Positions 7,355-57,075 of a DNA stretch of 64,000 nt are shown piece by piece (position 1 is the stretch's first letter; each line of letters begins with the position of its first letter). Position numbers and translations under genes: made by a program. Source of the DNA: Pseudomonadota bacterium (GTDB lineage Bacteria; Desulfobacterota; Desulfobacteria; Desulfobacterales; UBA11574); NCBI GenBank assembly GCA_043827325.1, contig JBDRPF010000039.1, forward strand, positions 5,694 to 69,693, in the 5' to 3' direction. The notes beneath the pieces are model-generated. The model searched no databases and was not told the origin of the DNA. It worked only from the letters and a program-made list of their open reading frames with translations.

Positions 7355-7401
7355 ATCCCGTTTTTCATAAAATCCAGAACGATAGGTTTGAGTTTTATAC
7401 G

Positions 7402-7435: not shown

Positions 7436-7467
7436 AGGCCCAACGGAAAATTATCTGAGATATTTCT

Positions 7468-11549: not shown

Positions 11550-11574
11550 CTGCGGCGAGTTGGCGCACCGTCAT

Positions 11575-12573
11575 TTATCCTCCCACCGAACCGGCAAAAA
11601 AGCAGGCAACGTGGTGGTCGTTCCCTTCATCCTTCAGCGGCGGTTCTTCCCGGCTGCAGATTTCCTTTGCATATAAACAGCGGGTGTGGAAACGGCACCC
11701 TTCGGGCGGATTGATGGGACTGGGGACATCCCCTTTCAAAATGATCCTGTTCCGTTTCAGCGTCGGGTCGGGTACGGGTGACGCGGAAAGAAGGGCCTGG
11801 GTGTAAGGGTGCAGGGGGTTCCGGTAGAGATCTTCGCTTTTTGCCAGTTCGGCGATTTTTCCCAGGTACATCACCGCGACACGGTCACTGACATGCTCAA
11901 CAACGCTCAGATCATGGGAGATAAAGAGATACGTCAGCCCGAACTTTTCCTGCAGATTTTTCAGCAGATTGATGACCTGGGCCTGTATGGAAACATCCAG
12001 GGCAGACACCGCCTCATCGCAGACGATCAGCCTGGGGTTGAGGGCAAGGGCGCGGGCTACACCGATGCGCTGGCGCTGGCCCCCGGAGAACTGGTGCGGG
12101 TAACGGCGCATATGTTCCTTGCGCAACCCGACCTCATTTAACAGTTCGTGTACGCGTTCTTCTCTCTCCCGCCGATTTTTTACCCCGTGTATCAACAGCG
12201 GTTCGCCGATGATGTGGGACACCGGTTTTCTCGGGTTGAGGGAGGAATACGGGTCCTGAAAGATAATCTGCATTTTCGCCCTTAGATGGCGCATCTGTTC
12301 GGGCGAATAGGCGAGGATGTTTTCCCCTTCAAAGAAAACCTCACCGGATGTGGGTTCTTCCAAACGAAGGATGGCACGGCCGAAGGTGGTTTTGCCGCAG
12401 CCCGATTCACCCACCAAACCCAGAGTTTCGCCGTTTTCGATTGTCAGGTTTACGCGGTCAACGGCTTTAACCGAAGCGACTTCCTTTAAGAACAGACCGC
12501 CGCGAATCGGGTAATATTTAACCAGATTTCGGGCCTGGAGAAGGGGCTGTGGTTCTTGACGGGAATCAGGCAT
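11575..12573 (-). CDS. Oligopeptide/dipeptide ABC transporter ATP-binding protein (OppF/DppF type)
   Basis: Walker [10 protein letters not shown], signature FSGGQRQR, Walker [14 protein letters not shown]-terminal oligopeptide-transporter extension with Cys residues. Confidence 0.9.
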
Positions 12574-42079: not shown

Positions 42080-42765
42080 TCGATGGAGGCAACAAAGACG
42101 CAATCATCCGGATGTTCCATGTTCACAAGAATTATGGCCCAAAGAAATCCCTCATAGATATCACCCTCGACGTCTATAAAAACGAGTTCCTGTTCATCAG
42201 TGGTCCCAGCGGCGCGGGCAAAACCACCCTGCTCAAGATTCTCTATCTGGGAGAACCCGTATCGGAAGGACAGGTGTTGATCGACGGTATGAATCTCTCC
42301 AGGATATCCCGCAAACGAATACCCTTCCTGAGACGCAAAATCGGAATCATATTTCAAGATTATAAGTTAATATCCACTAAAACGGTTTATGACAACGTCG
42401 CGGTAGTACTCGAGGCCATGGGCAAAAAGCGCCGTCTGATCCAGAAAAAGGTGAGAAGCGTACTGCGAACGGTGGGAATGGAGGACAGGGCCGTTTCACT
42501 TCCCCCGAGCCTTTCCGGCGGCGAGCAGCAGCGGGTTGCGTTTGCCAGAGCTGTCGTCGGTGATCCAAAAATAATTCTCGCCGACGAACCCACCGGCAGT
42601 CTCGATACACAGTCTGCCGATATCATTTTTGATCTTCTCAAACGATTTCACAACCGTGGCGCCACCGTTATTATCGCCACGCACGACAAAGAACTGATGC
42701 GAAAAACCGGAGGGCGGATCATTCATCTCACGCAGGGGTGCATGCAAAGACCGACTGCCCAATAA
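42076..42765 (+). CDS. ftsE: Cell-division ABC transporter ATP-binding protein FtsE
   Basis: Walker [10 protein letters not shown], signature LSGGEQQR, Walker [12 protein letters not shown]. FtsE-type length and opening (I....V.K.Y). Confidence 0.9.
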
Positions 42766-42771
42766 CTCAAA

Positions 42772-43650
42772 ATGTTTCTTTACTACAAGCGCGCCACACA
42801 AGATATCCGGGACAACTTCTTCCTGAACGCGGTGACCGTCGTCACCATCGCCTTGTCTATCCTTATCGTCAGCGCCTTCGCCCTGTTTTTTGTAAATGCC
42901 AATGAAATAATGCGTTCCTGGAAACAGGGCTTGAGAATAATGGTCTATCTCAAACCGGATATCGCAGAAGAAACGATCTCTGAAATAAAAAGTAAAATCA
43001 GTGGAATGTACGGGGTTCAACGTGTCGAGTTCATATCAAAAGCCCAGGCCCTGTCCATGCTGAAGGAAAAGATGAAGCGTCAATCATCCCTGATCGAGAA
43101 CCTTAAACAGAATCCGCTTCCGGATGCTTTTGAAGTCCGAATGATCGCTTCATCGCAAAACAGAGAAAATATCGAACCCCTGGCAACCCGTATCGAGTCG
43201 ATCCCCCAGGTGGACGAAGTCGAATACGGTCAGAGCTGGCTCGGGCGGTTTACAAATATTTTCAACCTGTTCCGACTAACCGGATACGCATTGGGCGGCC
43301 TCTTCTTTATGGCCTCCGTATTTATCGTGGCCAATACAACCCGGCTTGTTCTTTATTCGCGGCGTGAAGAGGTAGAGATTATGCGTCTTGTCGGCGCTGA
43401 AGACAGATTTATCAGGGCGCCCTTCTACATCCAGGCCCTTATCCAGAGCATATTTGGCAGTGCTATGGGGCTGGGCGCATTGTACATTACCTTTTTGTTC
43501 GTATCTTCAAATGTCGAACAGGATTTTTCATACGGACTTTTTCATATCCGATTTTTCTCTCCCGGCGTTCTTTTGCTTATATTGCTGTGCAGCATGCTCG
43601 TCGGATGGACAGGTGCTTTTATTTCACTGAAACAGTTCTCAAACCGATGA
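42772..43650 (+). CDS. ftsX: Cell-division permease FtsX
   Basis: FtsX topology: N-terminal TM, periplasmic domain, three C-terminal TMs with MRLVGA...FI..PF motif. Confidence 0.9.
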   Translation: MFLYYKRATQDIRDNFFLNAVTVVTIALSILIVSAFALFFVNANEIMRSWKQGLRIMVYLKPDIAEETISEIKSKISGMYGVQRVEFISKAQALSMLKEKMKRQSSLIENLKQNPLPDAFEVRMIASSQNRENIEPLATRIESIPQVDEVEYGQSWLGRFTNIFNLFRLTGYALGGLFFMASVFIVANTTRLVLYSRREEVEIMRLVGAEDRFIRAPFYIQALIQSIFGSAMGLGALYITFLFVSSNVEQDFSYGLFHIRFFSPGVLLLILLCSMLVGWTGAFISLKQFSNR

Positions 43651-45179
43651 CCCCCATGCAAAACCCATGTCTCTCATCTGTCGGCCGTTGCGTGCACGGG
43701 GTAACACCGCATATGAAAATTTATGGTGTCGTTGTTCGCGGGCTGCTGGCCATCGTCGGCGTTCTTCTTGTTTTGAGCACCGCAGCGGTTTACGGCGATC
43801 CGCCGGAAGAAATCGGTACAATAACCGCGCCAAGGCTGAATATGCGGCCTGAACCCGGAACCCAGACCGCCCCGATAAAAATACTTCGCAAGGGAGCAAC
43901 GGTTAAAATTCTTAAGAGGTTTGATGGATGGATCGAAATCATGCATGAAGGACAGGTCGGTTACATCCGGGACAGAACATCCTATGTGCACATCATAAAA
44001 GATCCGGACAGCCAGCCCGCCAGAGACAACGCCATCCCGCCAGACACCGTTCCGGGCACCCCGCTCGACGAAAACGACATACAGCGTTTTAAAAAAGAAG
44101 CCGAAGACATCGGTCGCAAAATTGAAAAATCCAGATCTGAGGTGATGGCCATCACCAAAGAGGAAACCCGCACCATAAACAGTTTGGACGAGATCGATCT
44201 GACCCTCAATAAAACCCGGCGACGTGTGCAGTCTTTTGAATCCGAACTTGTCGATCTCGAAAAAAAGATCGAGGAGACAACCCGGCTCTCTGAAGATCTT
44301 CTGATACAAATAAAAGCCACCGAAGATTACGCCGCTAAACGTCTGGCAGCCCTCTACAGGCTCAACTGGCTGGGCACCCTGAATTTTATCGCTTCCGCCG
44401 AATCCATTTACGAAATTATTTTACGTAAAAAGGCCCTCGAACGGGTCCTGGCATATGATGAGAACATGCGGAGAAACTTTATAGAAAATAAAGCCAGGCT
44501 CGAAGCCCTGCTGGAGAAACAAAACAGTCAAAAAAAGGAAAAGCTCTCTCTGGATGTCGCTTTGAACGAGCAAATAAAGATTATGACCCGGGAGAAGTCA
44601 AAACGCTCTATGCTTCTCGCTGATATTCGCAACCAGCGCTCTCTTGAACTGGCCGCCATCGAATCCTTAAAGCAAGCCGCGATCACGCTCGATCAAACCA
44701 TAAAATCATTAAACGTAAAGCTGGATCAGCCGGAATACGTCGAGAAGAAAGCCGAAGACACGCAACAAAAGCCATTTCACGCTTTAAAAGGGTTGCTTAA
44801 AATGCCCGTCAAAGGTAAAATAGTTTCCTTTTTCGGTTCGTATAAAAACACCAAATTCAATGTCGTAAATTTCCGGAGCGGTATTGATATAGACGCAGAC
44901 CGTGGAGAACCCGTACATGCCGTAAGTACGGGGAAAACGATCTATTCCAGCTGGTTTAAAGGTTACGGCAACATGATCATCATAGATCACGGAGATAGTT
45001 ACTACACGGTTTATGCCCACATTGAAGAACTCTTCAAGGATAAAGGTGATCCGGTAGAAATCGGAGAAGTTATCGCCACCGTCGGCGATTCCGGTTCAAT
45101 GCACGGTCCGAGACTCTATTTTGAGATACGGCATCGCGGAAAACCCGAAGATCCGCTTGTGTGGATTAAAGAAGGATAG
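43647..45179 (+). CDS. EnvC-like murein hydrolase activator: SH3 + coiled coil + M23 peptidase domain
   Basis: Bacterial SH3-like segment (LNMRPEPG....I..L.KGA.V.IL....GW..I), long coiled coil, LytM/M23 domain (GIDIDA..GEPV.AV..G.....W..GYGN.IIIDHG..YYT.YAH). ATG 43647 overlaps the ftsX stop (ATGA); ATG 43713 is an alternative start. Confidence 0.8.
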   Translation: MTPMQNPCLSSVGRCVHGVTPHMKIYGVVVRGLLAIVGVLLVLSTAAVYGDPPEEIGTITAPRLNMRPEPGTQTAPIKILRKGATVKILKRFDGWIEIMHEGQVGYIRDRTSYVHIIKDPDSQPARDNAIPPDTVPGTPLDENDIQRFKKEAEDIGRKIEKSRSEVMAITKEETRTINSLDEIDLTLNKTRRRVQSFESELVDLEKKIEETTRLSEDLLIQIKATEDYAAKRLAALYRLNWLGTLNFIASAESIYEIILRKKALERVLAYDENMRRNFIENKARLEALLEKQNSQKKEKLSLDVALNEQIKIMTREKSKRSMLLADIRNQRSLELAAIESLKQAAITLDQTIKSLNVKLDQPEYVEKKAEDTQQKPFHALKGLLKMPVKGKIVSFFGSYKNTKFNVVNFRSGIDIDADRGEPVHAVSTGKTIYSSWFKGYGNMIIIDHGDSYYTVYAHIEELFKDKGDPVEIGEVIATVGDSGSMHGPRLYFEIRHRGKPEDPLVWIKEG

Positions 45180-45191
45180 AAGGAGTAAACA

Positions 45192-46535
45192 ATGCGCACC
45201 CCCAAAAATCGAAACATAAAACTATGGCTGGTTGCGGTATCTGTCGCTGTATTTATGACACTAACGGCCGGTTTTTACCGTGACCTTCTGGCCGATGCGG
45301 AAGAGACCTACAAAGAGCTTAAAATTTTTTCCGACGTCATTGAGCTGATCGAGCAAAACTACGTTGACCCCGTTGATGCAAAGGAATTGATACAGAATGC
45401 CATTCAGGGGATGGTGAACAGCCTCGATCCCCACTCCGCACTGCTTCCCCCGGACGCTTTTGAGGAACTGCAGATGGACACCCAGGGGAAGTTTACCGGA
45501 ATCGGTGTCAGCATAACCATGCGAGATGGTTTTGTTATGGTGATTGCACCCATAGAAGGTACCCCCGCCTTTAAGGCCGGAATAGAAGCCGGTGATAAAA
45601 TTATCAAGGTCGATGGACAACCGGTCAAAGATTTGCAGGAAGCCGTAAAAATGATGAGAGGGCCCAAGGGAACAACGGTCGTTGTTTTTATTAAGCGGGA
45701 AGAAATTGAAAAACCGTTGGAATTCACGCTGATTCGAGATGTTATACCCATAGAGAGCGTAAAAGCCATTCTCCTGAAACCGGGGTACGGATACATCCGG
45801 ATCACAAACTTCAGTGACGGCACGACAAAAGATCTCGTCGCCGCTCTAAAAGAACTGGAATCGGGAGACCCGCCCCTCTCCGGTCTCGTGCTCGATCTGC
45901 GTGGAAATCCCGGGGGACTGCTCCCTCAATCAATTCAAGTTTCGGACATTTTCCTGGACAGTGGTACAATACTATCCATCAAGGGCCGGGTGGAAAAACA
46001 TACAAAAATTTATACGGCACACCCCAACGCGATCAAGCGGAGTTATCCGATCGTCGTGCTGATTAACGGCGGGAGCGCCAGCGCATCAGAAATCGTTGCC
46101 GGAGCGCTGCAGGATAACAAGCGGGCGCTTTTACTGGGAACCAATTCATTCGGAAAAGGATCTGTCCAGACCGTAGAAACCCTGAGAAACGGTTTCGGTA
46201 TTAAACTAACCATCGCGAGATATTATACGCCCAGCGGCCGATCGATACAGGCAAAGGGCATTGAACCGGATATCGTCGTGAAATACAAACTCTTAGACCC
46301 GTCTGATTCGGCAGGGACTGACAGCCGCATAATCAAAGAGAAGGATCTGAAAAATCATCTCGAGGCGGAACCAACGCAAGCTGAAAGAAAAGAGACCGAC
46401 AAAAAGAAATTGCAGATCACTGAAGAAGAAAACAAATATCGGAAGCTCAAACTCGAAGCGCTTCAATCCGACAACCAGGTGATGCGTGCGCTTGAAATCC
46501 TTGTCGGTCACAAACTTTTCAAGGATATTACCTGA
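45192..46535 (+). CDS. ctpA: Carboxy-terminal processing peptidase (S41 family)
   Basis: PDZ segment (GIG........V..PIEGTPA.KAGI..GD.I..VDG), LDLRGNPGG and GGSASASEI motifs. Confidence 0.9.
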   Translation: MRTPKNRNIKLWLVAVSVAVFMTLTAGFYRDLLADAEETYKELKIFSDVIELIEQNYVDPVDAKELIQNAIQGMVNSLDPHSALLPPDAFEELQMDTQGKFTGIGVSITMRDGFVMVIAPIEGTPAFKAGIEAGDKIIKVDGQPVKDLQEAVKMMRGPKGTTVVVFIKREEIEKPLEFTLIRDVIPIESVKAILLKPGYGYIRITNFSDGTTKDLVAALKELESGDPPLSGLVLDLRGNPGGLLPQSIQVSDIFLDSGTILSIKGRVEKHTKIYTAHPNAIKRSYPIVVLINGGSASASEIVAGALQDNKRALLLGTNSFGKGSVQTVETLRNGFGIKLTIARYYTPSGRSIQAKGIEPDIVVKYKLLDPSDSAGTDSRIIKEKDLKNHLEAEPTQAERKETDKKKLQITEEENKYRKLKLEALQSDNQVMRALEILVGHKLFKDIT

Positions 46536-46541
46536 CAATAA

Positions 46542-47519
46542 ATGGCCCAACAGAAACCCGTTAAAAAAAGAACGGCCAAAACAGGGAAATCCGCGAAGCG
46601 CCCTGACTTTAAAACGCATCTTAAAAGGAGTATTGCCGGACTGTTCATTCTGGTTCTTCTGGTGGTTTCAGCAGGCGTTCTTGCGCATTATATGATGCGG
46701 CGAAAAATGCCTGAGCAATCGTTACCTGCCGTTAAACCCGCTCCGGTCTACAAAAAAGAGATACCACCGCCGGCCTTTGAAATCTTCCCCAAAGAGGAAG
46801 CACCCCTCCCGAAACCGGTACCGGCGCCCGAAATTCCTCTTCCTGAAAAACAACCCAGGGCGGCCATTATCATCGATGATCTGGGGTATGACCGGGGGAT
46901 TGCGGAAAAATTTCTCGAACTTGATGCCGTTCTCACGTTTTCCGTGCTCCCGTACAGCCCCTTTCAGAAAAAAATTGCGCGCGCCGCCCATGAAAAAGGA
47001 TATGACACCATGCTTCATCTGCCTATGGAGCCTTTCGAGTATCCTGACGTGGATCCCGGCCTCGGTGCGTTGCTTACCGCCATGTCTCCGGACCAGCTCA
47101 TCAAGCAGCTCAATGACGACCTGGACACCGTTCCGTTTATTAAAGGTGTCAACAATCACATGGGCTCTAAGATGACGACCCTGTCCCCACAGATCTACCA
47201 GATCTTTTCCGTTCTGAAAAAGAGGAACCTTTTTTTCATCGACAGCCGATCGACCCACAAAACCATCTGCAGGCCGTCTGCCCGGTTGTTTCAAATTCCA
47301 TTCGGCGAAAGGAATGTATTTCTCGACCACAATCCGGATCCCGAATCCATACGCCGCCAGATAGGGCGCCTGATTGAAATCGCCAGAAGCCACGGCGAAG
47401 CTATCGGCATCGCACACCCGCATATGGTTACATACGAAGTGCTGCGGAGTCAGCTGGCGGACATAAAAAGACAGGTCCGTCTTGTCCCGGCTTCAGAGGT
47501 CGTACATATCACCGAATAA
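46542..47519 (+). CDS. Divergent polysaccharide deacetylase family protein (YibQ-like)
   Basis: N-terminal anchor, Pro-rich linker, then AAIIIDDLGY...FSVLP...HLPMEP...NHMGS pattern. Confidence 0.8.
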   Translation: MAQQKPVKKRTAKTGKSAKRPDFKTHLKRSIAGLFILVLLVVSAGVLAHYMMRRKMPEQSLPAVKPAPVYKKEIPPPAFEIFPKEEAPLPKPVPAPEIPLPEKQPRAAIIIDDLGYDRGIAEKFLELDAVLTFSVLPYSPFQKKIARAAHEKGYDTMLHLPMEPFEYPDVDPGLGALLTAMSPDQLIKQLNDDLDTVPFIKGVNNHMGSKMTTLSPQIYQIFSVLKKRNLFFIDSRSTHKTICRPSARLFQIPFGERNVFLDHNPDPESIRRQIGRLIEIARSHGEAIGIAHPHMVTYEVLRSQLADIKRQVRLVPASEVVHITE

Positions 47520-47529
47520 TGAAACAACG

Positions 47530-47558
47530 TTGACACGGCAGCATCATTTCTCTATACT
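47530..47558 (+). promoter_or_regulatory. Sigma70-like promoter of the AmmeMemoRadiSam operon
   Basis: TTGACA (47530-47535), 17-nt spacer, TATACT (47553-47558), 65 nt upstream of the first ATG. Confidence 0.5.
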
Positions 47559-47622
47559 CCCTGCACTGCAGACGTTTTTGCGTTTATAGCGATTTTCAAA
47601 ACACCGTGCCCAGGGTCACCTC

Positions 47623-49113
47623 ATGAAAAAGCCGCTTCGTCCGTTCATCACCGTTTTTATGTTCTTCATAATCTGTCATTTTTTCATCGCGCAAGGCCAT
47701 GCGGAAAACATTCGAAAGTGCGTTTGGGCCGGACAATTTTATCCTGCGCAATCCTCCGATCTGAATCAGGCCATTGACGATCTCTCCCGGAAGGCCAGGG
47801 CAACGCGGGTTCAGGCACCGCCCGATAAAACACTTAAAGCCCTGATTTTGCCACACGCCGGGTATGTCTATTCCGGATGGACTGCCGCCCATGCCTCGCT
47901 GGTTTTGTCAAAAAACCGGTTTTCCAAGGTCATTCTGCTGGCACCGGATCACCGTGTGGGCTTTCGCGGCGGCGCCATCAGTGACGTATCCGCTTATGAA
48001 ACCCCCCTCGGCCGGATCATGCTTCATCCGGATGCCGCGAAATTGCGCCGGGATTTCGATATGTTTCAAGCCATTCCGGCTTCCGACCAGGCCGAGCACT
48101 CGCTGGAGGTGATCCTGCCGTTCCTGCAGCATTACATCGGGGAATTCACACTTGTTCCGATTGTCCTCGGCCAGTGTGACATCCATCGGATCGCGGCGGC
48201 CCTCGACCCCCTGATTGATACAAACACGCTGGTGGTGGCAAGCTCGGACCTGTCTCACTACCTTCCCTATTCCGATGCTGTTGAAAAGGACCGGGAGACG
48301 ATCCGGATGATTCTGAATCTCGACGGCGGCGAGCTGATAAAACACACAGATTCCGCATGCGGGGTGGGGCCGATACTCGTTCTGATGAATCTGGCACAGC
48401 AGCGTGCCTGGCAGCCGATTCTTCTCCATTATTCAAACAGCGGGGACACCGCCGGAGGACGGGACAGGGTTGTCGGCTATTCAGCCGTCGCCTTCTATGG
48501 AGGTTCATCTATGCAACAGAATGATTCCGAACAGAAATTAAATTCGGCGCAGGGGCAGGTGCTGGTTAAGCTGGCCCGCAGGACCGTTTCGGAAAGGCTC
48601 GGACAAAAGACGGAAGACGCCAAATCGGGAGCCCTTGAGACCGACCTTACGGATATGGATTTTCAGGCCCGCCGCGGCACCTTTGTCACCCTTCACAAGG
48701 ACGGCCGGCTTCGGGGCTGCATCGGGAGCCTGGCCGCCAGGGAATCCATTTTAGACAGCGTCAAGCACAATGCCCTCAATGCGGCATTCCACGATCCCCG
48801 TTTCCCTCCGCTCGCTGCCGATGAACTGGACAGCGTTGATTTCGAAGTCAGCATCCTGACCGAACCGCAACCGCTCGAATACGCGGACAGCGGCGATTTG
48901 TTGAACAAACTTCGCCCGAAGGTGGATGGTGTCATCATCCGCAAAGACGCAAAAAGCGCCACTTTTTTGCCTCAGGTCTGGGACCAGTTGCCGCGCCCCG
49001 AGGATTTTCTGTCCCATCTCTGCAGAAAGGCCGGCTTGTCGTCCGATGCCTGGCAACATACCAAACTGGAAGTTTCCACCTATCAGGTTCGATATTTTGA
49101 AGAAAAAAAATAA
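47623..49113 (+). CDS. Fusion of Memo-like (AmmeMemoRadiSam protein B) and AMMECR1 (protein A) domains with N-terminal signal peptide
   Basis: Signal-like MKKPLRPFITVFMFFIICHFFIAQGHA. Memo motifs AGQFYP, LPHAGYVYSG, DLSHY. AMMECR1 motif RGTFVTLHKDGRLRGCIGS in the C-terminal ~190 aa. Confidence 0.85.
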   Translation: MKKPLRPFITVFMFFIICHFFIAQGHAENIRKCVWAGQFYPAQSSDLNQAIDDLSRKARATRVQAPPDKTLKALILPHAGYVYSGWTAAHASLVLSKNRFSKVILLAPDHRVGFRGGAISDVSAYETPLGRIMLHPDAAKLRRDFDMFQAIPASDQAEHSLEVILPFLQHYIGEFTLVPIVLGQCDIHRIAAALDPLIDTNTLVVASSDLSHYLPYSDAVEKDRETIRMILNLDGGELIKHTDSACGVGPILVLMNLAQQRAWQPILLHYSNSGDTAGGRDRVVGYSAVAFYGGSSMQQNDSEQKLNSAQGQVLVKLARRTVSERLGQKTEDAKSGALETDLTDMDFQARRGTFVTLHKDGRLRGCIGSLAARESILDSVKHNALNAAFHDPRFPPLAADELDSVDFEVSILTEPQPLEYADSGDLLNKLRPKVDGVIIRKDAKSATFLPQVWDQLPRPEDFLSHLCRKAGLSSDAWQHTKLEVSTYQVRYFEEKK

Positions 49114-51205
49114 TCGTGCCGTAACGCGGGTGGTGATCGCCACGGGCATTTCTTCCGTGGTGACCCAGTTGTTGACCATTCGCGAATTTTTGGCACAGCT
49201 TCAGGGTAACGAGTTCGTCATCGCCCTGATTCTTTTCAATTGGATGATACTGGGCGGCACGGGTACACTTCTTGCACGATGGGTCACCCGGCGCCTCCGG
49301 CAGGTGACGATCCATCGGCTGGGGTGGATTTCTCTGCTGATGTCCGCTCTTCCCGCCATCCAGATTATGGGCATCCGGGTGCTCCGTGATGTCTTCTTTA
49401 TTCACGGGAGCTCCATCGGATTTTACCCCACCTTGGCCTATACGTTTTTTACCATAGCACCGTATTGTCTCGTGCTGGGGTTTGTTCTTCCGTACAGCCT
49501 CTTTGTGATCCGCACCGAAATTCCCGATTACCGCGGTGCGCGCATTTATATAACGGACAACATCGGAGATGTTTCCGGCGGCGCCCTGTTCTCCTTTGCC
49601 CTTGTTTATCTGGTCACCCCCTTTCAAGCCGTGCTTCTCGCAAATCTGCCATTGCTGGCCGCAGCCTATTTTCTTTTTCCCGGCGCATCCCGGCGGCGTC
49701 CGTCTGTTATTTCGGGGGTGGGCCTGGCGCTGTTGATCCTTGTATCCGCCGTTTTCGTTGAACCGGCCTCCCTTGCACCCAAAGAAGGAAAACTGGTCCT
49801 TTATCGCGAATCCCGTTACGGCAGGATTGCCGTCCATCAAGACCGGGAGCAGTTCACGCTTTTTCTCGGCGGCACCCCGCTTTTCAGCAGCCAGAATCTG
49901 GAAATGGCCGAAGAAACCGTCCATTATCCCCTGTCGCAACTCGATGAAGCGAAACAGATTCTGTTGATTTCCGCAGAGAGCGGCATGATGGGAGAAGTAC
50001 AAAAATACCGGCCGGATACGGTGGATTATGTGGAACTGGACCCCCAGGTTGCTTCCATCCAATTCAGATTCGGCCTGATCGAATCGATTCCCGGTTTGAA
50101 CGTCATTCATCAGGACGGCCGGGCCTATCTGTCAACCACCCGGAAAAGCTACGACGCCATAATCATCAACCTGACCGAACCGGACACCTTTCAAATCAAC
50201 CGGTTCTTTACCGACCGTTTCTTCGCTCTGGCCAGAAGTCATCTCTCCTCCCGGGGCATCCTCAGCTTTTCCATGCAGGGATATGACAATTACCTTGCCG
50301 AACCACAGCGACAGAAGCTTTCCTCCCTTTACAATACGGTGAAAGGATACTTCCGGCACGTGCTGCTGCTGCCGGGTCAGAAGATCATCTTTCTCTGCTC
50401 GGATCAGCCCATCCGGACGGATATCCCGAAGCTGCTCGAAAAAAAAGGAATTTCAACGCGTTACATCAGCGGATATTTTTACGGCAACCTGACCCGGGAA
50501 AGAATCTCGCAGCTGAACGAACTGATGGATCCCGCCGCACCCAAAAACCGGGATGATTCCCCGGAGTTGATGCGGTTGATGTTTTCCCAGTGGTTTGCCA
50601 AATTCGCCACGTCGCCTGCCGGATTTTTCATTGTGTCGGCCGTGCTGCTCGTCATATACATGGCACGTGTAACCCGTGAAGAATTTGTTCTTTTCTCCAC
50701 CGGCTGCATCGTCATGGGGTGCGAGATTCTGGTTATTTTTGCTTTTCAGATCTTTTTCGGTTATATTTACCTGCAGATCGGATTGATCGTCACCGTGTTT
50801 CTGGCCGGCCTCCTTCCCGGTGCCTGGTTCGGCGACCGACTGCACGGCCGGGGAAAACGAATCTTGATGTTTGCCGACGGGCTGCTTATTTTATTGTTGC
50901 TGCTTTTGATCATAGCCCTGCAGCACGGTGGAGATCGCGTGCCGGTGGGTGCTTATCTCGGTTTCGGTTTTGCGGTTTCCCTGGTCTGCGGCTTTCAATT
51001 TCCCGTTGCACTGGTTTTGCGGGGCGGAGACGCGTCGGCCGTGACACGGATCTTTTCCGCGGATCTCATCGGCGCCGCCGTCGGAACCTTGGTGACCAGC
51101 ACGCTTCTGATTCCTTATTTCGGTATCCTATGGACGGCGGCCGGACTGATCGGGCTGAAGCTCATCAGCCTGACGGTGATTGGAGTGAGTCGTGAAAAAA
51201 ATTAG
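49097..51205 (+). CDS. Spermidine-synthase-like polytopic membrane protein (TM block - SpeE-like fold - TM block)
   Basis: N-terminal hydrophobic block (TQLLTIREF....GNEFVIALILFNWMILGGTG...). Central region with VELDP and DAIIINLTEPD. The usual GGGDG position reads SAESGMMG. A second hydrophobic block at the C-terminus. The start is uncertain (TTG 49097 or GTG 49130, neither with an SD). Confidence 0.7.
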   Translation: MKKKNNRAVTRVVIATGISSVVTQLLTIREFLAQLQGNEFVIALILFNWMILGGTGTLLARWVTRRLRQVTIHRLGWISLLMSALPAIQIMGIRVLRDVFFIHGSSIGFYPTLAYTFFTIAPYCLVLGFVLPYSLFVIRTEIPDYRGARIYITDNIGDVSGGALFSFALVYLVTPFQAVLLANLPLLAAAYFLFPGASRRRPSVISGVGLALLILVSAVFVEPASLAPKEGKLVLYRESRYGRIAVHQDREQFTLFLGGTPLFSSQNLEMAEETVHYPLSQLDEAKQILLISAESGMMGEVQKYRPDTVDYVELDPQVASIQFRFGLIESIPGLNVIHQDGRAYLSTTRKSYDAIIINLTEPDTFQINRFFTDRFFALARSHLSSRGILSFSMQGYDNYLAEPQRQKLSSLYNTVKGYFRHVLLLPGQKIIFLCSDQPIRTDIPKLLEKKGISTRYISGYFYGNLTRERISQLNELMDPAAPKNRDDSPELMRLMFSQWFAKFATSPAGFFIVSAVLLVIYMARVTREEFVLFSTGCIVMGCEILVIFAFQIFFGYIYLQIGLIVTVFLAGLLPGAWFGDRLHGRGKRILMFADGLLILLLLLLIIALQHGGDRVPVGAYLGFGFAVSLVCGFQFPVALVLRGGDASAVTRIFSADLIGAAVGTLVTSTLLIPYFGILWTAAGLIGLKLISLTVIGVSREKN

Positions 51206-52373
51206 CAGACGCCGTTTTTTATACTGCGGTGCGGCATTTTTGGCGTTGCCCGCGCCGGCCGGCGCGTTTCAGCTCTTTCCCGATACCGGCAGCAAGGCAT
51301 CCGGCCCTGACGATATCCGCGGAACGGTATTCAAGGGTGACGCCCCCGAAAAATTGTGGAAATGGTCCAAAGAAGGCTTTCTCTACAAAAAGATGGGCGG
51401 CGACAAGGTGGTCTGCGGCATCTGCCCCAACCGCTGCGTTCTGGCCCCCGGGGACCGCAGCGTCTGCCGCTCCAAGGTCAACATGGCAGGCACCCTGTAC
51501 AGCCTGGCATACGGCAATCCCTGTGCCGTGAACGTCGATCCTGTTGAAAAAAAGCCGCTGTACCATTTCAAACCCCGGTCAAAAGCCTTTTCTCTGGCCA
51601 CCACCGGGTGCAACTTCCGATGCCTGAACTGCCAGAACTGGGAGATTTCCCAGGTCAAACCGCATGAGGTGCGGCACCATGAGCTTTTCCCGCCCGAAGC
51701 GGTAATTGCTGCGAAAAATTCCGGGTGCGTCTCCATCGCCTATACGTATTCCGAGGCCATTACCTATTTTGAGTACATGATCGATATTGCCCGGTTGGCC
51801 AAAGATGCCGGCATTTGCAATCTTTTGATTTCAAACGGTTACATAAACCAGACCCCGCTTCTGGAACTCTGCACGGTGCTGGACGCCGCCAATATCAACT
51901 TGAAATCCTTCGATGATGCCATTTACCGGAAACTCAACGGCGGCCGTCTTCAGCCGGTGCTTGACACCTTCAAAACCCTTCACCGGCAGGGCATCCATTT
52001 TGAGATGACCAACCTGGTGGTCCCCGGTTACGTCGATGATGAGGAGATGGTCAAGGCGATGTGCCAGTGGATTCTTGACAACCTGGGGCCGGATTATCCC
52101 CTGCATTTTTTGCGGTTTTTTCCGAAATACAAGCTCGACCGGCTGCCCCCGACCCCTTTGTCAACCCTTATTCGCTTCCGGGAGGTGGCCATGGCAGAGG
52201 GAATTCGCTATGCCTATGTGGGCAACGTCCCCAACCACGAGGGAAACAACACCTACTGTCACAACTGCAAAAAAATGTTGGTCGAACGGGTGGGATATTC
52301 TATTCCGGCATACAACCTGGACGGAAATCGATGCAAATTCTGCAAGACCGTCATCCCCGGGCAATGGACATAG
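51192..52373 (+). CDS. AmmeMemoRadiSam-system radical SAM enzyme with twin-arginine-like leader
   Basis: CNFRCLNCQNW radical SAM cluster motif. N-terminal Cys cluster VCGICPNRC....G..SVC. Extra ~45-aa leader SRRRFLYCGAAFLALPAPAGA. GTG start 6 nt after GGAG, overlapping the upstream gene by 14 nt. Confidence 0.85.
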   Translation: MKKISRRRFLYCGAAFLALPAPAGAFQLFPDTGSKASGPDDIRGTVFKGDAPEKLWKWSKEGFLYKKMGGDKVVCGICPNRCVLAPGDRSVCRSKVNMAGTLYSLAYGNPCAVNVDPVEKKPLYHFKPRSKAFSLATTGCNFRCLNCQNWEISQVKPHEVRHHELFPPEAVIAAKNSGCVSIAYTYSEAITYFEYMIDIARLAKDAGICNLLISNGYINQTPLLELCTVLDAANINLKSFDDAIYRKLNGGRLQPVLDTFKTLHRQGIHFEMTNLVVPGYVDDEEMVKAMCQWILDNLGPDYPLHFLRFFPKYKLDRLPPTPLSTLIRFREVAMAEGIRYAYVGNVPNHEGNNTYCHNCKKMLVERVGYSIPAYNLDGNRCKFCKTVIPGQWT

Positions 52374-52479
52374 AGCTTGGCGCAGAGGGCAGAGAGGATG
52401 GCGTGTAGAACAGAGAGAAAAGCACCAAACATGTTAACAGCGATATGAATATGGTATCGTGGGATAGGGATAGTTTGAT

Positions 52480-52587
52480 ATGAAATACTCACAGGCCAGA
52501 CCGGGAAGAATCTTTGTTATCCGGCTCGAAGACGGGGATATGGAGAGTTTTTTATTGACACACATATCCTTTTCCATTTATAGCTAG
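52480..52587 (+). pseudogene. Possible N-terminal remnant of a DUF296 (PPC-domain) gene
   Basis: The 35-codon ORF MKYSQARPGRIFVIRLEDGDME... resembles my recollection of how DUF296 proteins open, then runs into nonsense and a stop. Confidence 0.25.
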
Positions 52588-52807
52588 CCTATCTTCCTAT
52601 AATCTTTAAATTCTTAAAATGCTTTTTTTTTCGATGGTTATCCGGCCCGAAACTCTCAGGAGGTTGTCATTCTAAAATTATTCTTGGAATTGCTGTGAAT
52701 ACCCGTGCGCATGCCGTTTAAAACACAATGTCAGGGCATTCGTATGAAAGGTCTGTGCGGCGTTTCCATTCAACGCTTAAATGGCACTTAACAACAAGGT
52801 GAAACGT

Positions 52808-53350
52808 ATGATTGAAATCAGAATACATGGTCGAGGCGGACAGGGAAACGTTGCGGCTGCAGAGCTTTTGTCGATTGCAGCGTTTGCAGACGGAAAATTT
52901 TCCCAGGCGTTTCCCTCTTTCGGGGCTGAACGGATCGGCGCCCCTGTCCAGGCGTTTGTAAGAATTGACGACAAAAAAATTCGAACGCGGGAGGATGTCC
53001 GGACGCCGGATTATCTGATCATTCAGGACGAATTCTTGATCGAAACGGTCCCTGTTTTGGATGGATTGAAACCTGACGGTTTAATTCTGATCAATTCAGA
53101 CAGGCTCCCCGAGGATTTAAACATTAAAACAACCGCAACTATTGAAACCATTCCTGCTACGGAAATCGCCCTTGAAATCATCGGCAGGCCCATCCCCAAC
53201 GCCGTGATGATCGGCGCATTCTGTGCTATTACCGGTCTGGTGAGCCTTGACGCTGTACAGAAGGCCATTATGGGCAAGTTCCCCGGCAGGGTCGGAGAAA
53301 ACAATGTGGCCGCCCTTGAACGGGCTGCTGAAATCATACAAAAGAGGTAG
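52808..53350 (+). CDS. 2-oxoacid:ferredoxin oxidoreductase, gamma subunit
   Basis: IEIRIHGRGGQGNV.AAELL..AAF..GK. is the typical gamma-subunit opening. ~180 aa from ATG 52808. Confidence 0.85.
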   Translation: MIEIRIHGRGGQGNVAAAELLSIAAFADGKFSQAFPSFGAERIGAPVQAFVRIDDKKIRTREDVRTPDYLIIQDEFLIETVPVLDGLKPDGLILINSDRLPEDLNIKTTATIETIPATEIALEIIGRPIPNAVMIGAFCAITGLVSLDAVQKAIMGKFPGRVGENNVAALERAAEIIQKR

Positions 53351-53354
53351 GTTT

Positions 53355-54530
53355 ATGCTGAAACAAATTGAAGGATCTCATGCTGTTGCGGATGTGGTAG
53401 CCATGTGCCGCCCCAACGTTATTTCCGCGTATCCGATCACGCCGCAAACCCACATTGTGGAAGCGCTGGCGTCCATTGTCGGCGAGGGCCGGCTGGACGC
53501 CGAGTTTGTCAATGTGGAAAGTGAATTTGCTGCGGCATCGGTTGTGTTGGGGGCCAGTGCCGCGGGTGCCCGTACATACACGGCAACATCATCGCAGGGG
53601 CTGTTGCTCATGAGCGAAGTCATTTACTGCATTGCGGGAATGCGACTGCCCGTTGTGTTAACCTGTGCCAACCGGGCCATATCCGCACCGCTGAGTATAT
53701 GGAACGATCAGCAGGACTCCATGGCACTGAGGGATGCGGGATGGATTCAGCTCCATGCCGAGGACAACCAGGAGGCGGCGGACCTGCACATCCAGGCGTT
53801 CAAAATCGCGGAGCAGACCTTTCTTCCGGTCATGGTTTGCATGGACGGATTTATTCTGACGCACGCATTCGAGCCGGTCGACGTTCCGGATCCAAAAGAT
53901 GTGGATGCCTTTTTGCCCCCGTTTAAACCCAAAAACATTGTCGATCCCCGCTGGCCCAGGGGTATCGGCCTTTTTGCGGACCCCCGGTTTTACCTGGAAA
54001 CCCGCTACATCCTCCACCGGGCCATGGAAAAATCCGAGGACACCATCAACGATGTCAGCGCCGAATTTGCCAAAGCATTCGGCAGGGACAGCGGCGGTTT
54101 TATCAAGACCTACAAGCTGAAAGATGCCGATCTTGTTATTGTTTCCATGGGCTCTGTGGTCGGGACCATCAAGGAGCTCATCGACCGGCTGGAAGAAGAG
54201 GGTAAGAAAGTCGGGCTGTTACAAATATGTTCCTATCGCCCGTTTCCGCGAAACGCGGTTTACAATGCCTTAAAAGACAAAATGAACATTGTTGTGCTGG
54301 AAAAGTCGATTTCACTGGGAAGAGGCGGCATTCTGGCCAGCGACGTGCGCTGGTCCTTTCCCCGGGCAGAGAAAAAAGACCGCAACATCAGCAGTTTCAT
54401 TGCCGGTCTCGGCGGCAGAAACATACCGATAGACGATCTTCGGTACATGGTGGAAAAGGTGGAGAAAGAACCCGTGGAAATCGAATTTTTAGGGTTGAAA
54501 AAGGAACTCATAGCAGAGAAGGATTTGTAA
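53355..54530 (+). CDS. 2-oxoacid:ferredoxin oxidoreductase, alpha subunit
   Basis: EGSHAVA..V....P.VISAYPITPQT..VE opening and ~390-aa length. ATG 53355 follows AGAGG. The ORF-track extension overlaps the gamma gene. Confidence 0.9.
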   Translation: MLKQIEGSHAVADVVAMCRPNVISAYPITPQTHIVEALASIVGEGRLDAEFVNVESEFAAASVVLGASAAGARTYTATSSQGLLLMSEVIYCIAGMRLPVVLTCANRAISAPLSIWNDQQDSMALRDAGWIQLHAEDNQEAADLHIQAFKIAEQTFLPVMVCMDGFILTHAFEPVDVPDPKDVDAFLPPFKPKNIVDPRWPRGIGLFADPRFYLETRYILHRAMEKSEDTINDVSAEFAKAFGRDSGGFIKTYKLKDADLVIVSMGSVVGTIKELIDRLEEEGKKVGLLQICSYRPFPRNAVYNALKDKMNIVVLEKSISLGRGGILASDVRWSFPRAEKKDRNISSFIAGLGGRNIPIDDLRYMVEKVEKEPVEIEFLGLKKELIAEKDL

Positions 54531-54532
54531 TA

Positions 54533-55423
54533 ATGAGCATAACAGAAGAAGAACTCAACAGAGTAGAAAAAAAAGACCTGTTTACCAGCGGCCATCGGGC
54601 GTGCGGCGGTTGTGCCCAGGCCCTTGCCGCGCGTCTGGTTCAAGACGCTTCGGGCGAAAACACCATCGCGTGCGTTGCCACGGGGTGTCTGGAAGTGTTC
54701 AGTTCACCCTATCCGGACCCGTCCTGGCGCGTTCCTTTCTTGCACAGCCTGTTTGAGAACGCGGCAGCGGTGGCTTCCGGCGTGGAAGCCGCCTACAAGG
54801 CCTTGAAAAAAGGACCGGTCAACATCATCGCCCAGGGCGGTGACGGCAGTACGGCCGACATCGGGTTTCAGTGCATCAGCGGCATGTTCGAACGGGGCCA
54901 CAACGTGCTCTATGTCTGCTACGACAACGAAGCATACATGAATACCGGTGTTCAGCGTTCCAGTTTTACACCCTTTGGCGCCCGTACCACCACCACGCCC
55001 ATGGGAAACAAAATCCGGAAGAAAGATATGCCTGCCATTGCCGCCGCTCACGGGATTCCGTATGTTGCCACCGCCACAACGGACGATTTCAGAGATCTTC
55101 AGCGCAAGGTGAAGTTCGCCCTGACCATCGAAGGACCCAAATACATTCACATCCTCGCGCCCTGCCCGTTGGGATGGGGGCATCACGGAGAACTCTCCAT
55201 AGAGATCAGCCGTTTGGCCAAGGATACCGGGTTGTTTCCCATTTTTGAAATTATCAACGGCAAGGTGACCAACGTGAGAAAGATTCCCGTCAAAAAGCCC
55301 GTGGAAGAGTATCTGAAACCGCAAGGCCGGTTCAGACACCTCTTCAAAAAGGGCGTGCCGACGGAAGTCGTGGCCGAAATTCAAAAAATTGCCAACCAAA
55401 ATATAGAGAGGTTTAATTTATAA
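54533..55423 (+). CDS. 2-oxoacid:ferredoxin oxidoreductase, beta (TPP-binding) subunit
   Basis: SGHRACGGC cluster-binding Cys motif and TPP motif GGDGSTADIGF...DNEAYMNTG. ATG 54533. Confidence 0.9.
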   Translation: MSITEEELNRVEKKDLFTSGHRACGGCAQALAARLVQDASGENTIACVATGCLEVFSSPYPDPSWRVPFLHSLFENAAAVASGVEAAYKALKKGPVNIIAQGGDGSTADIGFQCISGMFERGHNVLYVCYDNEAYMNTGVQRSSFTPFGARTTTTPMGNKIRKKDMPAIAAAHGIPYVATATTDDFRDLQRKVKFALTIEGPKYIHILAPCPLGWGHHGELSIEISRLAKDTGLFPIFEIINGKVTNVRKIPVKKPVEEYLKPQGRFRHLFKKGVPTEVVAEIQKIANQNIERFNL

Positions 55424-57075
55424 TGGAAAAGCTGCCTTTAGGATTAGTCCTGGATTTGCGTAAAGTGGTGCCTTACAAAACAGGGTCATGGCGGACCCTG
55501 ATGCCGGTGAACATAACCCAGATTCCGCCCTGCACGCACAATTGCCCTTCGGGCAACGACATCCGTGGGTTCTTGAGAGTCCTTGCAGAGCGGCAGGACT
55601 ACGAAGACGCCTGGCATATTCTGACCCGCACCAATCCTCTGCCGGCAACCTGCGGCAGGGTCTGCCCCCATCCCTGTGAGGGGGGGTGTAACCGCCGGGA
55701 TTTTGACACGCCCCTGGCCATAAACAGCGCGGAACGCACCGTGGGGGATTATGGTCTGGAGCAAAAGCTGGAACACATGAAACTCCTCTCGCCTCGAAAA
55801 GAGAAAGTGGCGGTGGTGGGATCCGGACCGGCAGGGCTTTCATGCGCGTTTCATCTGGCCAAAAGGGGGTTTAAGGTAAAAATATTCGAAGCGAACAGCG
55901 AACCCGGCGGGATGATGCGCTACGGCATCCCGTCCTACCGCCTGCCGAATTACATCCTGAAACAGGAAATCGACAATATTCTCAAGCTCGGCATCGAGCT
56001 GGAATGCAATGTCAAAGCGGGTGTCAACATTCCGATGGATCAGTTGACCCGGGAATATGACGCGGTCTTTTTGGGACTCGGCGCCCAGATCGGATCATCC
56101 ATAGGACTTCCCGGTGAAGATGTGCAAAACGTTTATACCGGTGTGGAGTTCCTGAATCAGATCAACAGCGGAAAGATCGTGGAACTGGGCCGTGACGTGG
56201 TTGTCATCGGCGGCGGCAATACGGCCATGGACTGTGCCCGCGTCGCCAAACGGCTGGGCGCGAATGTCAGTGTCTTTTACCGGCGTACCCGAATGGAGAT
56301 GCCTGCCATCAAGGCCGAGATCGATGAAGCCATGGAAGAGCGCATCATGTTTCGTTATCACACCAACCCGGTAAAGATCCTCAACGATGAAGGTCGGTCC
56401 ATCGGCGTTCTTTGCGTCCAGATGGAACTGAAAGAACCGGATGCCAGCGGCCGGGCCAGACCGGTCCCCATCAAAGGTTCGGAAGCGGTTTATCCGGCGG
56501 ATACCGTCATTATGGCAACGGGCCAGGCCGTGGATTATGACGGCATCGACATCCAGAAAATGGACAACCAGTGGATTCAAACAAATGACAGGTTGATGAC
56601 CAGTATGGACGGCGTATTTGCCGGCGGTGACGCGGTGATAGGCCTTGAGACGGTTACCGCGGCAATCGGACAGGGCACCCGGGCCGCGTCCGCCATTGAA
56701 GATTACATCGAAGGCAGGGTGGAAAGCAGACTGGCCCAGCCGCCGGTGCTCTATTCCAAGGATCTCAATACGTACTACTATAAATCCGCAAAACGATTCA
56801 CCAAGGAAGCCGTGTCCATTCACCGGCGACTGAAGGGTTTCCGGGAGATTTATCCGGCGTTTGATGAAGAGGAGATCATTAAAGAAGCGGAACGCTGTTT
56901 CAGCTGCGGTCTCTGTTTTCATTGCGGCAATTGCTATATGTACTGCCCGGACAATGCCGTAAAGATATCGCAAAAAACGGGAATGTACGAATTTGACCTG
57001 GACTTCTGCAAGGGATGCGGCCTTTGCGTCAAAGAATGCCCCTGTCATTATATTCAGATGACACTTGAAAAATAA
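55423..57075 (+). CDS. GltD/NfnB-like NAD(P)H-dependent flavoprotein fused to a C-terminal 2x[4Fe-4S] ferredoxin domain
   Basis: N-terminal Cys motifs CTHNCPSGNDI and CGRVCPHPCEGGCNR. VAVVGSGPAGLSCA and VVVIGGGNTAMDCA Rossmann motifs. C-terminal CFSCGLCFHCGNCYMYCP and CKGCGLCVKECP. ATG overlaps the beta-subunit stop. Confidence 0.85.
   Translation: MEKLPLGLVLDLRKVVPYKTGSWRTLMPVNITQIPPCTHNCPSGNDIRGFLRVLAERQDYEDAWHILTRTNPLPATCGRVCPHPCEGGCNRRDFDTPLAINSAERTVGDYGLEQKLEHMKLLSPRKEKVAVVGSGPAGLSCAFHLAKRGFKVKIFEANSEPGGMMRYGIPSYRLPNYILKQEIDNILKLGIELECNVKAGVNIPMDQLTREYDAVFLGLGAQIGSSIGLPGEDVQNVYTGVEFLNQINSGKIVELGRDVVVIGGGNTAMDCARVAKRLGANVSVFYRRTRMEMPAIKAEIDEAMEERIMFRYHTNPVKILNDEGRSIGVLCVQMELKEPDASGRARPVPIKGSEAVYPADTVIMATGQAVDYDGIDIQKMDNQWIQTNDRLMTSMDGVFAGGDAVIGLETVTAAIGQGTRAASAIEDYIEGRVESRLAQPPVLYSKDLNTYYYKSAKRFTKEAVSIHRRLKGFREIYPAFDEEEIIKEAERCFSCGLCFHCGNCYMYCPDNAVKISQKTGMYEFDLDFCKGCGLCVKECPCHYIQMTLEK

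Follow-up and report, generated by a model that had tools for sequence, protein, structure and literature searches.

An AmmeMemoRadiSam operon of the Desulfobacterales with predicted export signals and a catalytically degenerate SpeE-fold membrane protein

The window analysed here is a stretch of 64,000 nucleotides from contig JBDRPF010000039.1, from a bacterium assigned to the Desulfobacterales. It contains an operon of three genes on the + strand, called g1, g2 and g3 below, which holds the three signature domains of the AmmeMemoRadiSam system within one locus. This system is a trio of Memo, AMMECR1 and radical S-adenosylmethionine (SAM) proteins, for which we know of no function. By every defining test the locus is an AmmeMemoRadiSam system, and it is a member neither of the SpeE enzymes nor of the glycyl-radical activases. 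It shares with the canonical cytoplasmic systems three signature proteins above their cut-offs, a single operon and identical radical SAM motifs, but differs in that the Memo and AMMECR1 domains are fused behind a secretory (Sec) signal, the radical SAM enzyme carries a twin-arginine translocation (Tat) leader, and a membrane component is encoded between them. The whole is best explained, and we think reasonably probably, as an extracytoplasmic AmmeMemoRadiSam system, in which three translationally coupled genes would provide four functional parts.

The domain identities are clear. The g1 product matches TIGR04336 (Memo type) with 234.2 bits against a cut-off of 26 over residues 31-291, and TIGR04335 (AMMECR1 type) with 202.2 bits against a cut-off of 99 over residues 313-492. 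The g3 product scores 339.3 bits against TIGR04337 (cut-off 220), with the model beginning at residue 66, and 56 bits against PF04055. The g2 product matches the Pfam Spermine_synth domain (PF01564) with 40.3 bits, the gathering score being 22.9. Apart from PF04055, these profiles had been named as a check in an earlier note on this DNA, and all match above their cut-offs; the motifs quoted there (LPHAGYVYSG, LRGCIGS, SAESGMMG, VELDP, DAIIINLTEPD, SRRRFLY, EKLWKWSKEGFLY and CNFRCLNCQNW) were also all located. Coordinates are collected in Table 1.

In the open reading frame (ORF) scan of the window the stop and start codons of the three genes overlap, by 17 nt between g1 and g2 and by 14 nt between g2 and g3, and the genes are translationally coupled. 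The open frame of g2 extends from 48926, and its actual start is the TTG at 49097, overlapping the g1 stop; the product from this TTG agrees with NCBI protein P0001 in length (702 aa) and with 100% identity. The start codon of g3 is a GTG, with GGAG 6 nt upstream. The sigma-70-like promoter that had been noted in front of the three tightly packed genes matches the consensus at 11 of 12 positions, a score that 500 shuffles of the 160 nt upstream never reached, and TTGACA-17-TATnnT also lies upstream of g1 at about 20 orthologous loci. The orthologue set comprised 80 loci from species-level genomes, with g3 identities of 66-81%, annotated as Desulfobacterales or related Thermodesulfobacteriota except for one contig (L010) labelled Nitrospinaceae. 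The arrangement is kept in 65-74 of the 80.

The earlier note had described g1 as a Memo-AMMECR1 fusion behind a signal-like N-terminus, and comparison of orthologues bears this out. The predicted signal peptide is made up of MKKPLRP (n-region), FITVFMFFIICHFFIA (hydrophobic h-region) and QGHA, with cleavage predicted after GHA, and residues 4-27 are the only hydrophobic stretch in the protein. Of 58 full-length g1 orthologues, 56 have all the elements of a Sec signal (a positive n-region, a strongly hydrophobic h-region and an AxA-type site); the two exceptions reflect a contig-end cut or the choice of start codon. The conserved mature start IRKPVYAGSFYP follows directly after the AxA site. 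The sequence of the signal drifts among orthologues while its properties are kept, which is the behaviour of a real signal peptide.

The leader of g3 contains S-R-R-R-F-L-Y, then CGAAFLALPAP and AGA, and fits the Tat consensus [ST]-R-R-x-F-L-K followed by an h-region and AxA. All 77 g3 orthologues compared have [STND]-R-R-x-F-[LI], a moderately hydrophobic h-region and AxA, and no segment of g3 reaches the hydrophobicity threshold that the g1 h-region meets. The assignment of g3 as a radical SAM enzyme with a twin-arginine leader stands. The pattern that had been described (SRRRFLY and an Ala-rich h-region ending in AGA) is real, but its extent is not the approximately 45 aa first given: a 25-aa leader is followed by a linker of about 40 aa that is conserved within the clade. 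The AxA sites kept after both signals suggest that a leader acting only as an anchor is less likely. The proposal that this copy is targeted to the envelope also holds as a prediction, with the Sec signal of g1 and the Tat leader of g3 conserved in Desulfobacterales and recurring in distant lineages.

With g3 as query, 1.84 billion cluster representatives yielded 7454 matches, and the best 150, representing 50%-identity clusters, were classified. A complete core was present in 132. N-terminal extensions are absent from 77 of these; twin-arginine leaders occur in 29 (32 by eye), a plain hydrophobic or lipoprotein-like N-terminus in 4, and 14 are long N-terminal fusions, 12 of which open with a membrane or signal segment. 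Roughly one in three of the nearest 50%-identity TIGR04337 clusters has a Tat leader, a membrane anchor or an electron-conduit fusion, and all ten representatives tested, fusions among them, exceed the TIGR04337 cut-off. When core sequences were compared, 46 of the 48 exported or membrane-linked forms had an exported nearest neighbour, and the core-sequence tree required 9 state changes for targeting, against a mean of 39 with shuffled labels. Because the exported forms group on core sequence alone, targeting is, by this comparison, an old and stable trait of one branch of the family. Exported and cytoplasmic members conserve CxxxCxxC, QNW, TYxE(P), [ST]xG, DLK and the flanking Cys motifs to the same degree, and nothing in these motifs suggests that the exported enzymes would have given up SAM chemistry.

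The signals on the partner proteins go together. Distant Tat-type radical SAM genes (44-49% identity) adjoin signal-bearing Memo-AMMECR1 fusions (loci L083, L085 and L094), and in all cases examined the fusion carries a signal peptide wherever the adjoining radical SAM protein has a Tat leader. The leaderless relative P0241 adjoins a Memo protein of 270 aa and an AMMECR1 protein of 183 aa, both without signals; its locus (L091), used as a cytoplasmic control, has none of the fused Memo-AMMECR1, Sec signal, Tat leader or membrane component seen here.

In several close relatives of g3 the radical SAM domain is joined to a trans-membrane electron conduit. The fusions take the form of DsbD_2 followed by radical SAM (P0244, P0247), a single anchor, FMN_bind and radical SAM (P0246, P0260), or FMN_bind, NapH/NosR-like CX3CP helices and radical SAM (P0254, P0264), while P0261 combines all the conduit modules in one chain. 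The flavinylation motif D-x-x-[ST]-G-A-T is present in the FMN_bind (flavin mononucleotide-binding) domains. Each of the two CX3CP segments of the NapH-like fusions lies in a positive loop, and the last is followed by one extra helix; from helix parity and these positive loops the radical SAM domain is expected on the same side as the FMN domain, which in NapH-like systems is extracytosolic (PMC8238504). Positive loops likewise predict an outside position for the C-terminal radical SAM domain of the DsbD_2 fusions. The flavinylated NapH/NosR-like systems described in PMC8238504 share FMN_bind and the PF12801 CX3CP helices with these relatives, and by analogy the fusions offer a precedent for electrons reaching an extracytoplasmic enzyme, although the word 'radical' is absent from the main text of that paper. 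A covalently bound FMN beside a radical SAM domain would resemble the flavodoxin that reduces cytoplasmic radical SAM enzymes. An exported radical SAM enzyme had been called odd in the earlier note, for lack of both reductant and SAM outside the cytoplasm; the conduit fusions partly answer the objection about reductant, and the part that concerns SAM stands.

The g2 gene lies directly upstream of g3 in 74 of the 80 genome loci, and g1 is seen in 65 of the 80, most of the others ending at contig ends; in three loci with sufficient flank (L019, L030 and L041) g3 stands by itself among unrelated genes. Two further lineages, clades B and C, have distant g2 homologues (23-27% identity) that neighbour a Tat-type radical SAM gene and a signal-bearing Memo-AMMECR1 gene. 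Clade B (neighbourhood of P0263) has a full-length g2 homologue with 23% identity (E ~1e-34) and the gene order divergent g1, DUF362, g3, g2. The homologue in clade C (neighbourhood of P0265) has 26% identity (E ~1e-46), in the order g1, g3, convergent g2. A metagenome scan seeded with the distant homologues gave 58 loci, 49 of them with g1 and/or g3 adjoining, and in only one (L099) is there room on both sides of the g2-like gene and yet neither g1 nor g3. On this evidence of linkage in three gene orders g2 is a genuine fourth component and a stable partner of the system, much as had been suggested when the SpeE-like membrane gene was described as recruited. The co-occurrence of twin-arginine leaders and the SpeE-like gene with AmmeMemoRadiSam recurs in the neighbourhoods surveyed, and is not universal (L083, L081).

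The structure of g2 was expected to be a SpeE-like fold with blocks of helices at both ends of a protein of about 700 aa. This held, with 702 aa, about 14 predicted helices, and a central domain that in a Foldseek search of the PDB matches SpeE only, over approximately 190-243 alignment columns. The helix bundles found no match in the same search, and none in Pfam; compared with each other for an internal repeat they show no detectable similarity. The SpeE equivalogs all score far below their cut-offs (42.5 bits against 249.6 for TIGR00417, 90.3 against 472 for NF002956, and 60.5 against 260 for NF002010). Alignment to 6qmm and 3anx indicates that the first Asp of D-x-x-D-P, which we take to be the catalytic base (Asp170 in Thermotoga SpeE), is replaced by Asn in g2 (IINLTEP). 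The Asn is nearly invariant in the window's clade and is also present in clade B (ILNPGE) and clade C (VNVPGP). Where SpeE has the glycine loop GGG(D/E)G, the window shows SAESG and its clade (clade A) has the consensus SAEGG; the counterparts in clades B and C are GRPEFG and GGGAEG. Clades A and C keep the ribose-binding acid (E313 in the window), which is replaced by Ala in clade B (TALDP), and the adenine-binding Asp (D340) is kept in the window's clade. Clade B argues against binding of an adenosyl compound by g2. Because the catalytic Asp is replaced, the glycine loop degenerate and the ribose-binding acid only partly kept, g2 is, to judge from these residues, no aminopropyltransferase.

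Many polar or charged residues within the helices of g2 are invariant across lineages, which makes it more than an anchor. Residues kept in all three lineages include Q24, R29, E30, E39, R61, R94 and R139 in the N-terminal bundle, and E543, Q551, G555 and Y558 in the C-terminal bundle. A role as an electron conduit was also considered and rejected: the three lineages share not one invariant Cys or His, so that g2 is unlikely to carry electrons.

The topology of g2 was predicted using the positive-inside rule. With seven helices, the domain and a further seven helices, the sums of Lys and Arg averaged over 66 orthologues are 16.4 for inside loops and 2.7 for outside loops. The 19 sequences of clade B give a cleaner result than the window's clade (18.1 inside, 1.5 outside), with a strongly positive loop before the helix preceding the central domain and another (RRGGLARFG) after the helix following it. 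In both clades the central domain is thus predicted to be on the periplasmic side.

We propose the following mechanism. The g1 protein would be secreted unfolded through Sec and its 27-residue signal cut after AxA, while g3 would receive its iron-sulfur (Fe-S) clusters in the cytoplasm and then be exported folded through Tat. From the inner membrane, g2 would expose its catalytically dead SpeE-fold domain to the periplasm and serve as a membrane platform, probably docking g1 and g3 and presenting a small molecule that is membrane-derived or delivered across the membrane. All the catalytic hallmarks of its family are retained in g3, and a SAM-dependent hydrogen abstraction is therefore the most likely chemistry; it would take place on the outer surface of the inner membrane, with g1 and/or g2 holding the substrate. 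Electrons may come from low-potential periplasmic carriers of this sulfate-reducer lineage; in related lineages the donor would be fused (FMN-binding plus NapH/NosR-like modules, or DsbD/CcdA-like) or co-encoded (DUF362). The operon of the window has no FMN_bind/NapH-like or DsbD-like module of its own. The supply of SAM could be explained in three ways that fit the data, namely by a one-shot activase with SAM pre-bound, by SAM acting as a regenerated cofactor, or by delivery through g2.

Several observations weigh against this proposal. The export of g1 and g3 is read from their sequences, and the curated Tat-signal profiles TIGR01409 and PF10518 gave no match to the g3 leader at E values up to 10; the sole Tat profile to match g3 was PF10399 (Rieske Tat-signal), with an E value of 0.061, below cut-off. 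These profiles are very short, and their failure to match is weak negative evidence. We know of no periplasmic source of SAM, and none is evident in the locus. P0262 and P0281 have Sec-like or lipoprotein-like N-termini on an Fe-S enzyme, which is hard to reconcile with export of a protein carrying its clusters, and there are Tat-type radical SAM genes without g2 (L083) and without Memo or AMMECR1 (L081). The topology of g2 rests on hydrophobicity and charge counts, in which three long hydrophobic stretches were each counted as two helices. The AlphaFold model of g2, made with 44 close homologues, is poor (predicted local distance difference test, pLDDT, of 59.6) and usable only for the helix count, which is the same; a third homologue search with a mixed alignment found only close Desulfobacterales relatives and gave no deeper alignment. 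Finally, the PRK03612 membrane SpeE proteins have an N-terminal helix bundle homologous to that of g2, and their catalytic domain, if these enzymes are active, should be cytoplasmic.

One alternative is that the signals are an artefact of gene calling and that the true starts lie downstream of them. The non-ATG starts (GTG in g3, TTG in g2) and the profile matches beginning only at residue 31 of g1 and residue 66 of g3 would fit this. The leaders are however conserved as signal-like coding sequence across 56-77 orthologues and in distant clusters, contrary to the conserved downstream starts that the earlier note had named as speaking against them, and GGAG precedes the GTG of g3. The g3 leader cannot be put down to gene calling, because the next Met is residue 68, inside the conserved core, and because the NCBI and JGI callers agree on the length of 393 aa, which is shared by hundreds of full-length relatives. 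Nearly as improbable is that g2 is an active aminopropyltransferase making a polyamine-type modification of an envelope component, along the lines of the modification suggested in the earlier note. The Spermine_synth domain is above cut-off and SpeE structures are the only fold matches, but Asn replaces the first Asp of D-x-x-D-P in three lineages, GGGDG has become SAESG in the window, and the equivalog scores are 42-90 bits where 250-472 are needed. In addition, the domain is predicted to be periplasmic, where decarboxylated SAM (dcSAM) is not expected. We consider both of these explanations essentially excluded. It would also solve the SAM and reductant problems if the signals were membrane tethers only, with g1 and g3 held beside g2 on the cytoplasmic face and all chemistry cytoplasmic. 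The plain hydrophobic or Sec-like N-termini of P0262 and P0281 are in line with this, as is the presumably cytoplasmic location of the catalytic domains of PRK03612-type membrane SpeE proteins. Such an arrangement is nevertheless unlikely: we know of no twin-arginine leaders that act as cytoplasmic tethers, AxA sites are conserved after both signals, and the charge distribution of g2 in two clades puts its central domain outside. The FMN_bind fusions moreover carry the flavinylation motif of extracytosolic proteins (PMC8238504).

The remaining alternatives accept export and concern the role of SAM. It is possible, although improbable, that g3 is a one-shot activase, exported by Tat with SAM bound and acting once in the periplasm in the manner of a glycyl-radical activase, so that a stable radical or a modification would be placed on a partner, either on the conserved LRGCIG loop of the g1 AMMECR1 domain or on the periplasmic domain of g2. 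A periplasmic SAM pool would then not be needed, which suits the absence of any visible SAM supply in the locus. Tat is well established to export folded, cofactor-loaded proteins, translational coupling would give near-stoichiometric amounts of enzyme and partner, and after TIGR04337 the best profile matches of g3 are glycyl-radical activases (YjjW, PflA). The activase scores are however far below their cut-offs (58 bits against 250), and the electron conduits fused to relatives suggest repeated reduction and hence repeated turnover. We give less weight still to g2 as a supply line, whose helix bundles would carry SAM or an adenosyl compound across the membrane for a binding-competent Rossmann domain to hand over to g3. 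The window's clade keeps both E313 and D340, clade C has a near-canonical GGGAEG loop, the invariant polar and charged residues within the helices are transporter-like, and g2-type genes are almost never found away from exported systems. Against this, clade B lacks both the glycine loop and the ribose-binding acid, the bundles match no known transporter family in Pfam or by Foldseek, and an exported system without g2 exists (L083). A broader reading, in which a whole periplasmic branch of the family acts on an envelope or membrane substrate, with electrons fed by FMN-binding/NapH-like or DsbD-like conduits or by periplasmic carriers, and with g2 delivering or holding the adenosyl cofactor and its SpeE-fold domain serving as a periplasmic SAM-handling module, also seems to us rather unlikely. 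The proposal made above, of g2 as a membrane platform for exported g1 and g3, remains the preferred one.

Comparison with known systems helps to define what is new. The membrane-bound aminopropyltransferases (NF002956/PRK03612; SpeE, PF01564) share with g2 an N-terminal bundle followed by the SpeE fold, and model positions 16-414 could be aligned. They differ from g2 in score (90 bits against 472), in the second helix bundle of g2, its Asn for Asp, its degenerate loop and its predicted periplasmic domain, and the g2 gene is linked to AmmeMemoRadiSam genes rather than polyamine genes. Tat-exported iron-sulfur proteins (hydrogenase small subunits, Rieske proteins and NapG-type ferredoxins) resemble g3 in having a twin-arginine leader before a cluster-bearing passenger that folds first; their passengers are electron carriers, whereas g3 belongs to a SAM-cleaving family. 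To our knowledge no SAM-cleaving enzyme has been described as a Tat substrate. The glycyl-radical activases (PflA, YjjW, NrdG) are the nearest characterised radical SAM families by profile, also with CxxxCxxC near the N-terminus of the core. They are set apart by score (55.5 bits against 231.8 for TIGR02493, 58 against 250.2 for TIGR04041) and by the extra N- and C-terminal Cys motifs of g3, and no glycyl-radical enzyme is encoded nearby.

Mentions of AmmeMemoRadiSam in the full-text literature searched are incidental, and none of it reports a radical SAM enzyme that is exported by Tat or periplasmic. AMMECR1 was still called uncharacterised in papers from 2019 and 2026. MEMO1 and AMMECR1 are human relatives of two of the trio proteins. 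The searched literature did not cover the 2019 paper of Burroughs and colleagues on the Memo superfamily (J Biol Chem), whose abstract reportedly links Memo, AMMECR1 and radical SAM to modification of nucleotide bases and isoprenoids. As far as we know, radical SAM enzymes are treated as strictly cytoplasmic, needing SAM and an electron donor of very low potential. The branch described here, represented in hundreds of genomes of Desulfobacterales and in many further 50%-identity clusters, challenges this assumption. The new elements are the conserved export signals, the fourth component of g2 type, and the FMN-binding/NapH-like and DsbD-like fusions of relatives. If export is true, SAM would have to be present in the periplasm, carried with the enzyme, or catalytic and regenerated, and each of these would be new to biochemistry. 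One site of reaction suggested by the exported variant is the outer surface of the inner membrane. This narrows the search for the substrate, which g2 would be expected to touch as a fourth protein. Orthologues occur in metagenome-assembled genomes assigned to Desulfosudis oleivorans (L079), Desulfonema limicola (L071) and Desulfatibacillum (L078), and these point to cultivable organisms.

Table 1. Features of the g1-g2-g3 operon, in positions of the window
Feature	Position	Strand	Basis
Sigma-70-like promoter TTGACA-17-TATACT, ending 64 nt 5' of the g1 start codon	47530..47558	+	11/12 match
g1, Memo-AMMECR1 fusion protein, predicted secreted, 496 aa	47623..49113	+	TIGR04336 and TIGR04335 above cut-offs
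g1 Sec-type signal peptide (predicted), residues 1-27, MKKPLRPFITVFMFFIICHFFIAQGHA then EN	47623..47703	+	hydrophobicity, orthologue comparison
g1 Memo domain	47713..48495	+	LPHAGYVYSG at 47848-47877; profile match
g1 AMMECR1 domain	48559..49098	+	LRGCIGS at 48709-48729; profile match
g2, predicted inner-membrane protein, ~14 helices, central catalytically degenerate SpeE-fold domain, 702 aa	49097..51205	+	P0001 identity, domain matches, linkage
g2 N-terminal bundle, 7 predicted helices, residues 1-225	49097..49771	+	hydrophobicity, model helix count
g2 central SpeE-fold (Rossmann) domain, predicted periplasmic	49772..50611	+	alignment to 6qmm and 3anx; Foldseek; positive-inside rule
g2 motifs SAESGMMG; VELDP; HQDGRAYL; DAIIINLTEPD	49970-49993; 50030-50044; 50108-50131; 50153-50185	+	
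g2 C-terminal bundle, 6-7 predicted helices, residues 506-702	50612..51205	+	hydrophobicity, model helix count
g3 ribosome-binding site GGAG	51182..51185	+	6 nt before GTG
g3, AmmeMemoRadiSam radical SAM enzyme with twin-arginine leader, 393 aa	51192..52373	+	TIGR04337
g3 Tat signal (predicted), residues 1-25, MKKISRRRFLYCGAAFLALPAPAGA then FQ	51192..51266	+	RR, h-region and AxA in 77/77 orthologues
g3 radical SAM cluster motif CNFRCLNCQNW	51609..51641	+	conservation equal in exported and cytoplasmic members
Further g3 Cys motifs	51414-51437; 52254-52277; 52332-52349	+	motif location

The operon is flanked by a YibQ-like deacetylase gene on the 5' side and by a 2-oxoacid:ferredoxin oxidoreductase operon on the 3' side. 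Directly 5' (40754-47519) are genes for a TolC-like outer-membrane factor, FtsE, FtsX, an M23 (EnvC-like) peptidase, an S41 C-terminal processing peptidase and the YibQ-like divergent polysaccharide deacetylase. A functional tie of ftsEX, envC, ctp and yibQ to g1 was considered and rejected: this gene run precedes g1 in only about 13 close relatives, and for this reason is regarded as local synteny. The downstream operon (52781-57075) encodes the gamma, alpha and beta subunits of the oxidoreductase and a GltD-like Fe-S flavoprotein, and apparently has its own promoter (TTGACA near 52553) in the 408-nt gap after g3. An Rfam scan of 47000-53000 found no riboswitch and no other RNA family.

Some further observations were made on relatives of the operon. 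The three lone g3 orthologues (L019 8001-9206, L030 6631-7806 and L041 7989-9203) have 73-75% identity and keep the Tat leader; their neighbours are MnmA-like, NadA, ResB/CcsA and Fic genes, and they may be second copies or relocated genes. In clade B (L085 1738-2661; L127-L153) the DUF362 gene is signal-less, and its stop codon overlaps the start of the Tat-type radical SAM gene that immediately follows; its product could be a hitch-hiking, co-exported Fe-S partner or an electron donor. P0262 (835 aa) is a single chain in which a Sec-like N-terminus is followed by Memo, AMMECR1 and radical SAM domains, and P0281 (387 aa) has a lipoprotein-like LLSGC box. In P0248 and P0250 the radical SAM domain lies behind an N-terminal anchor and is fused to CBM_11 or to beta-propeller repeats (Reg_prop, PorZ-like), which are domains typical of surface proteins.

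Small Cys-rich ORFs of 71 and 81 aa (CxxC...CxxC) lie just upstream of the g2-less Tat-type radical SAM genes in L081 (7799-8014) and L083 (3996-4241), and one of them has a C-terminal hydrophobic tail; they may encode partner or substrate proteins. In L083 the g2-less gene stands beside a signal-bearing Memo-AMMECR1 gene, and downstream of this pair (7104-11909) are genes for a GT4 glycosyltransferase, a histidine phosphatase, a START lipid-binding protein and an alkaline ceramidase, which may hint at a lipid substrate.

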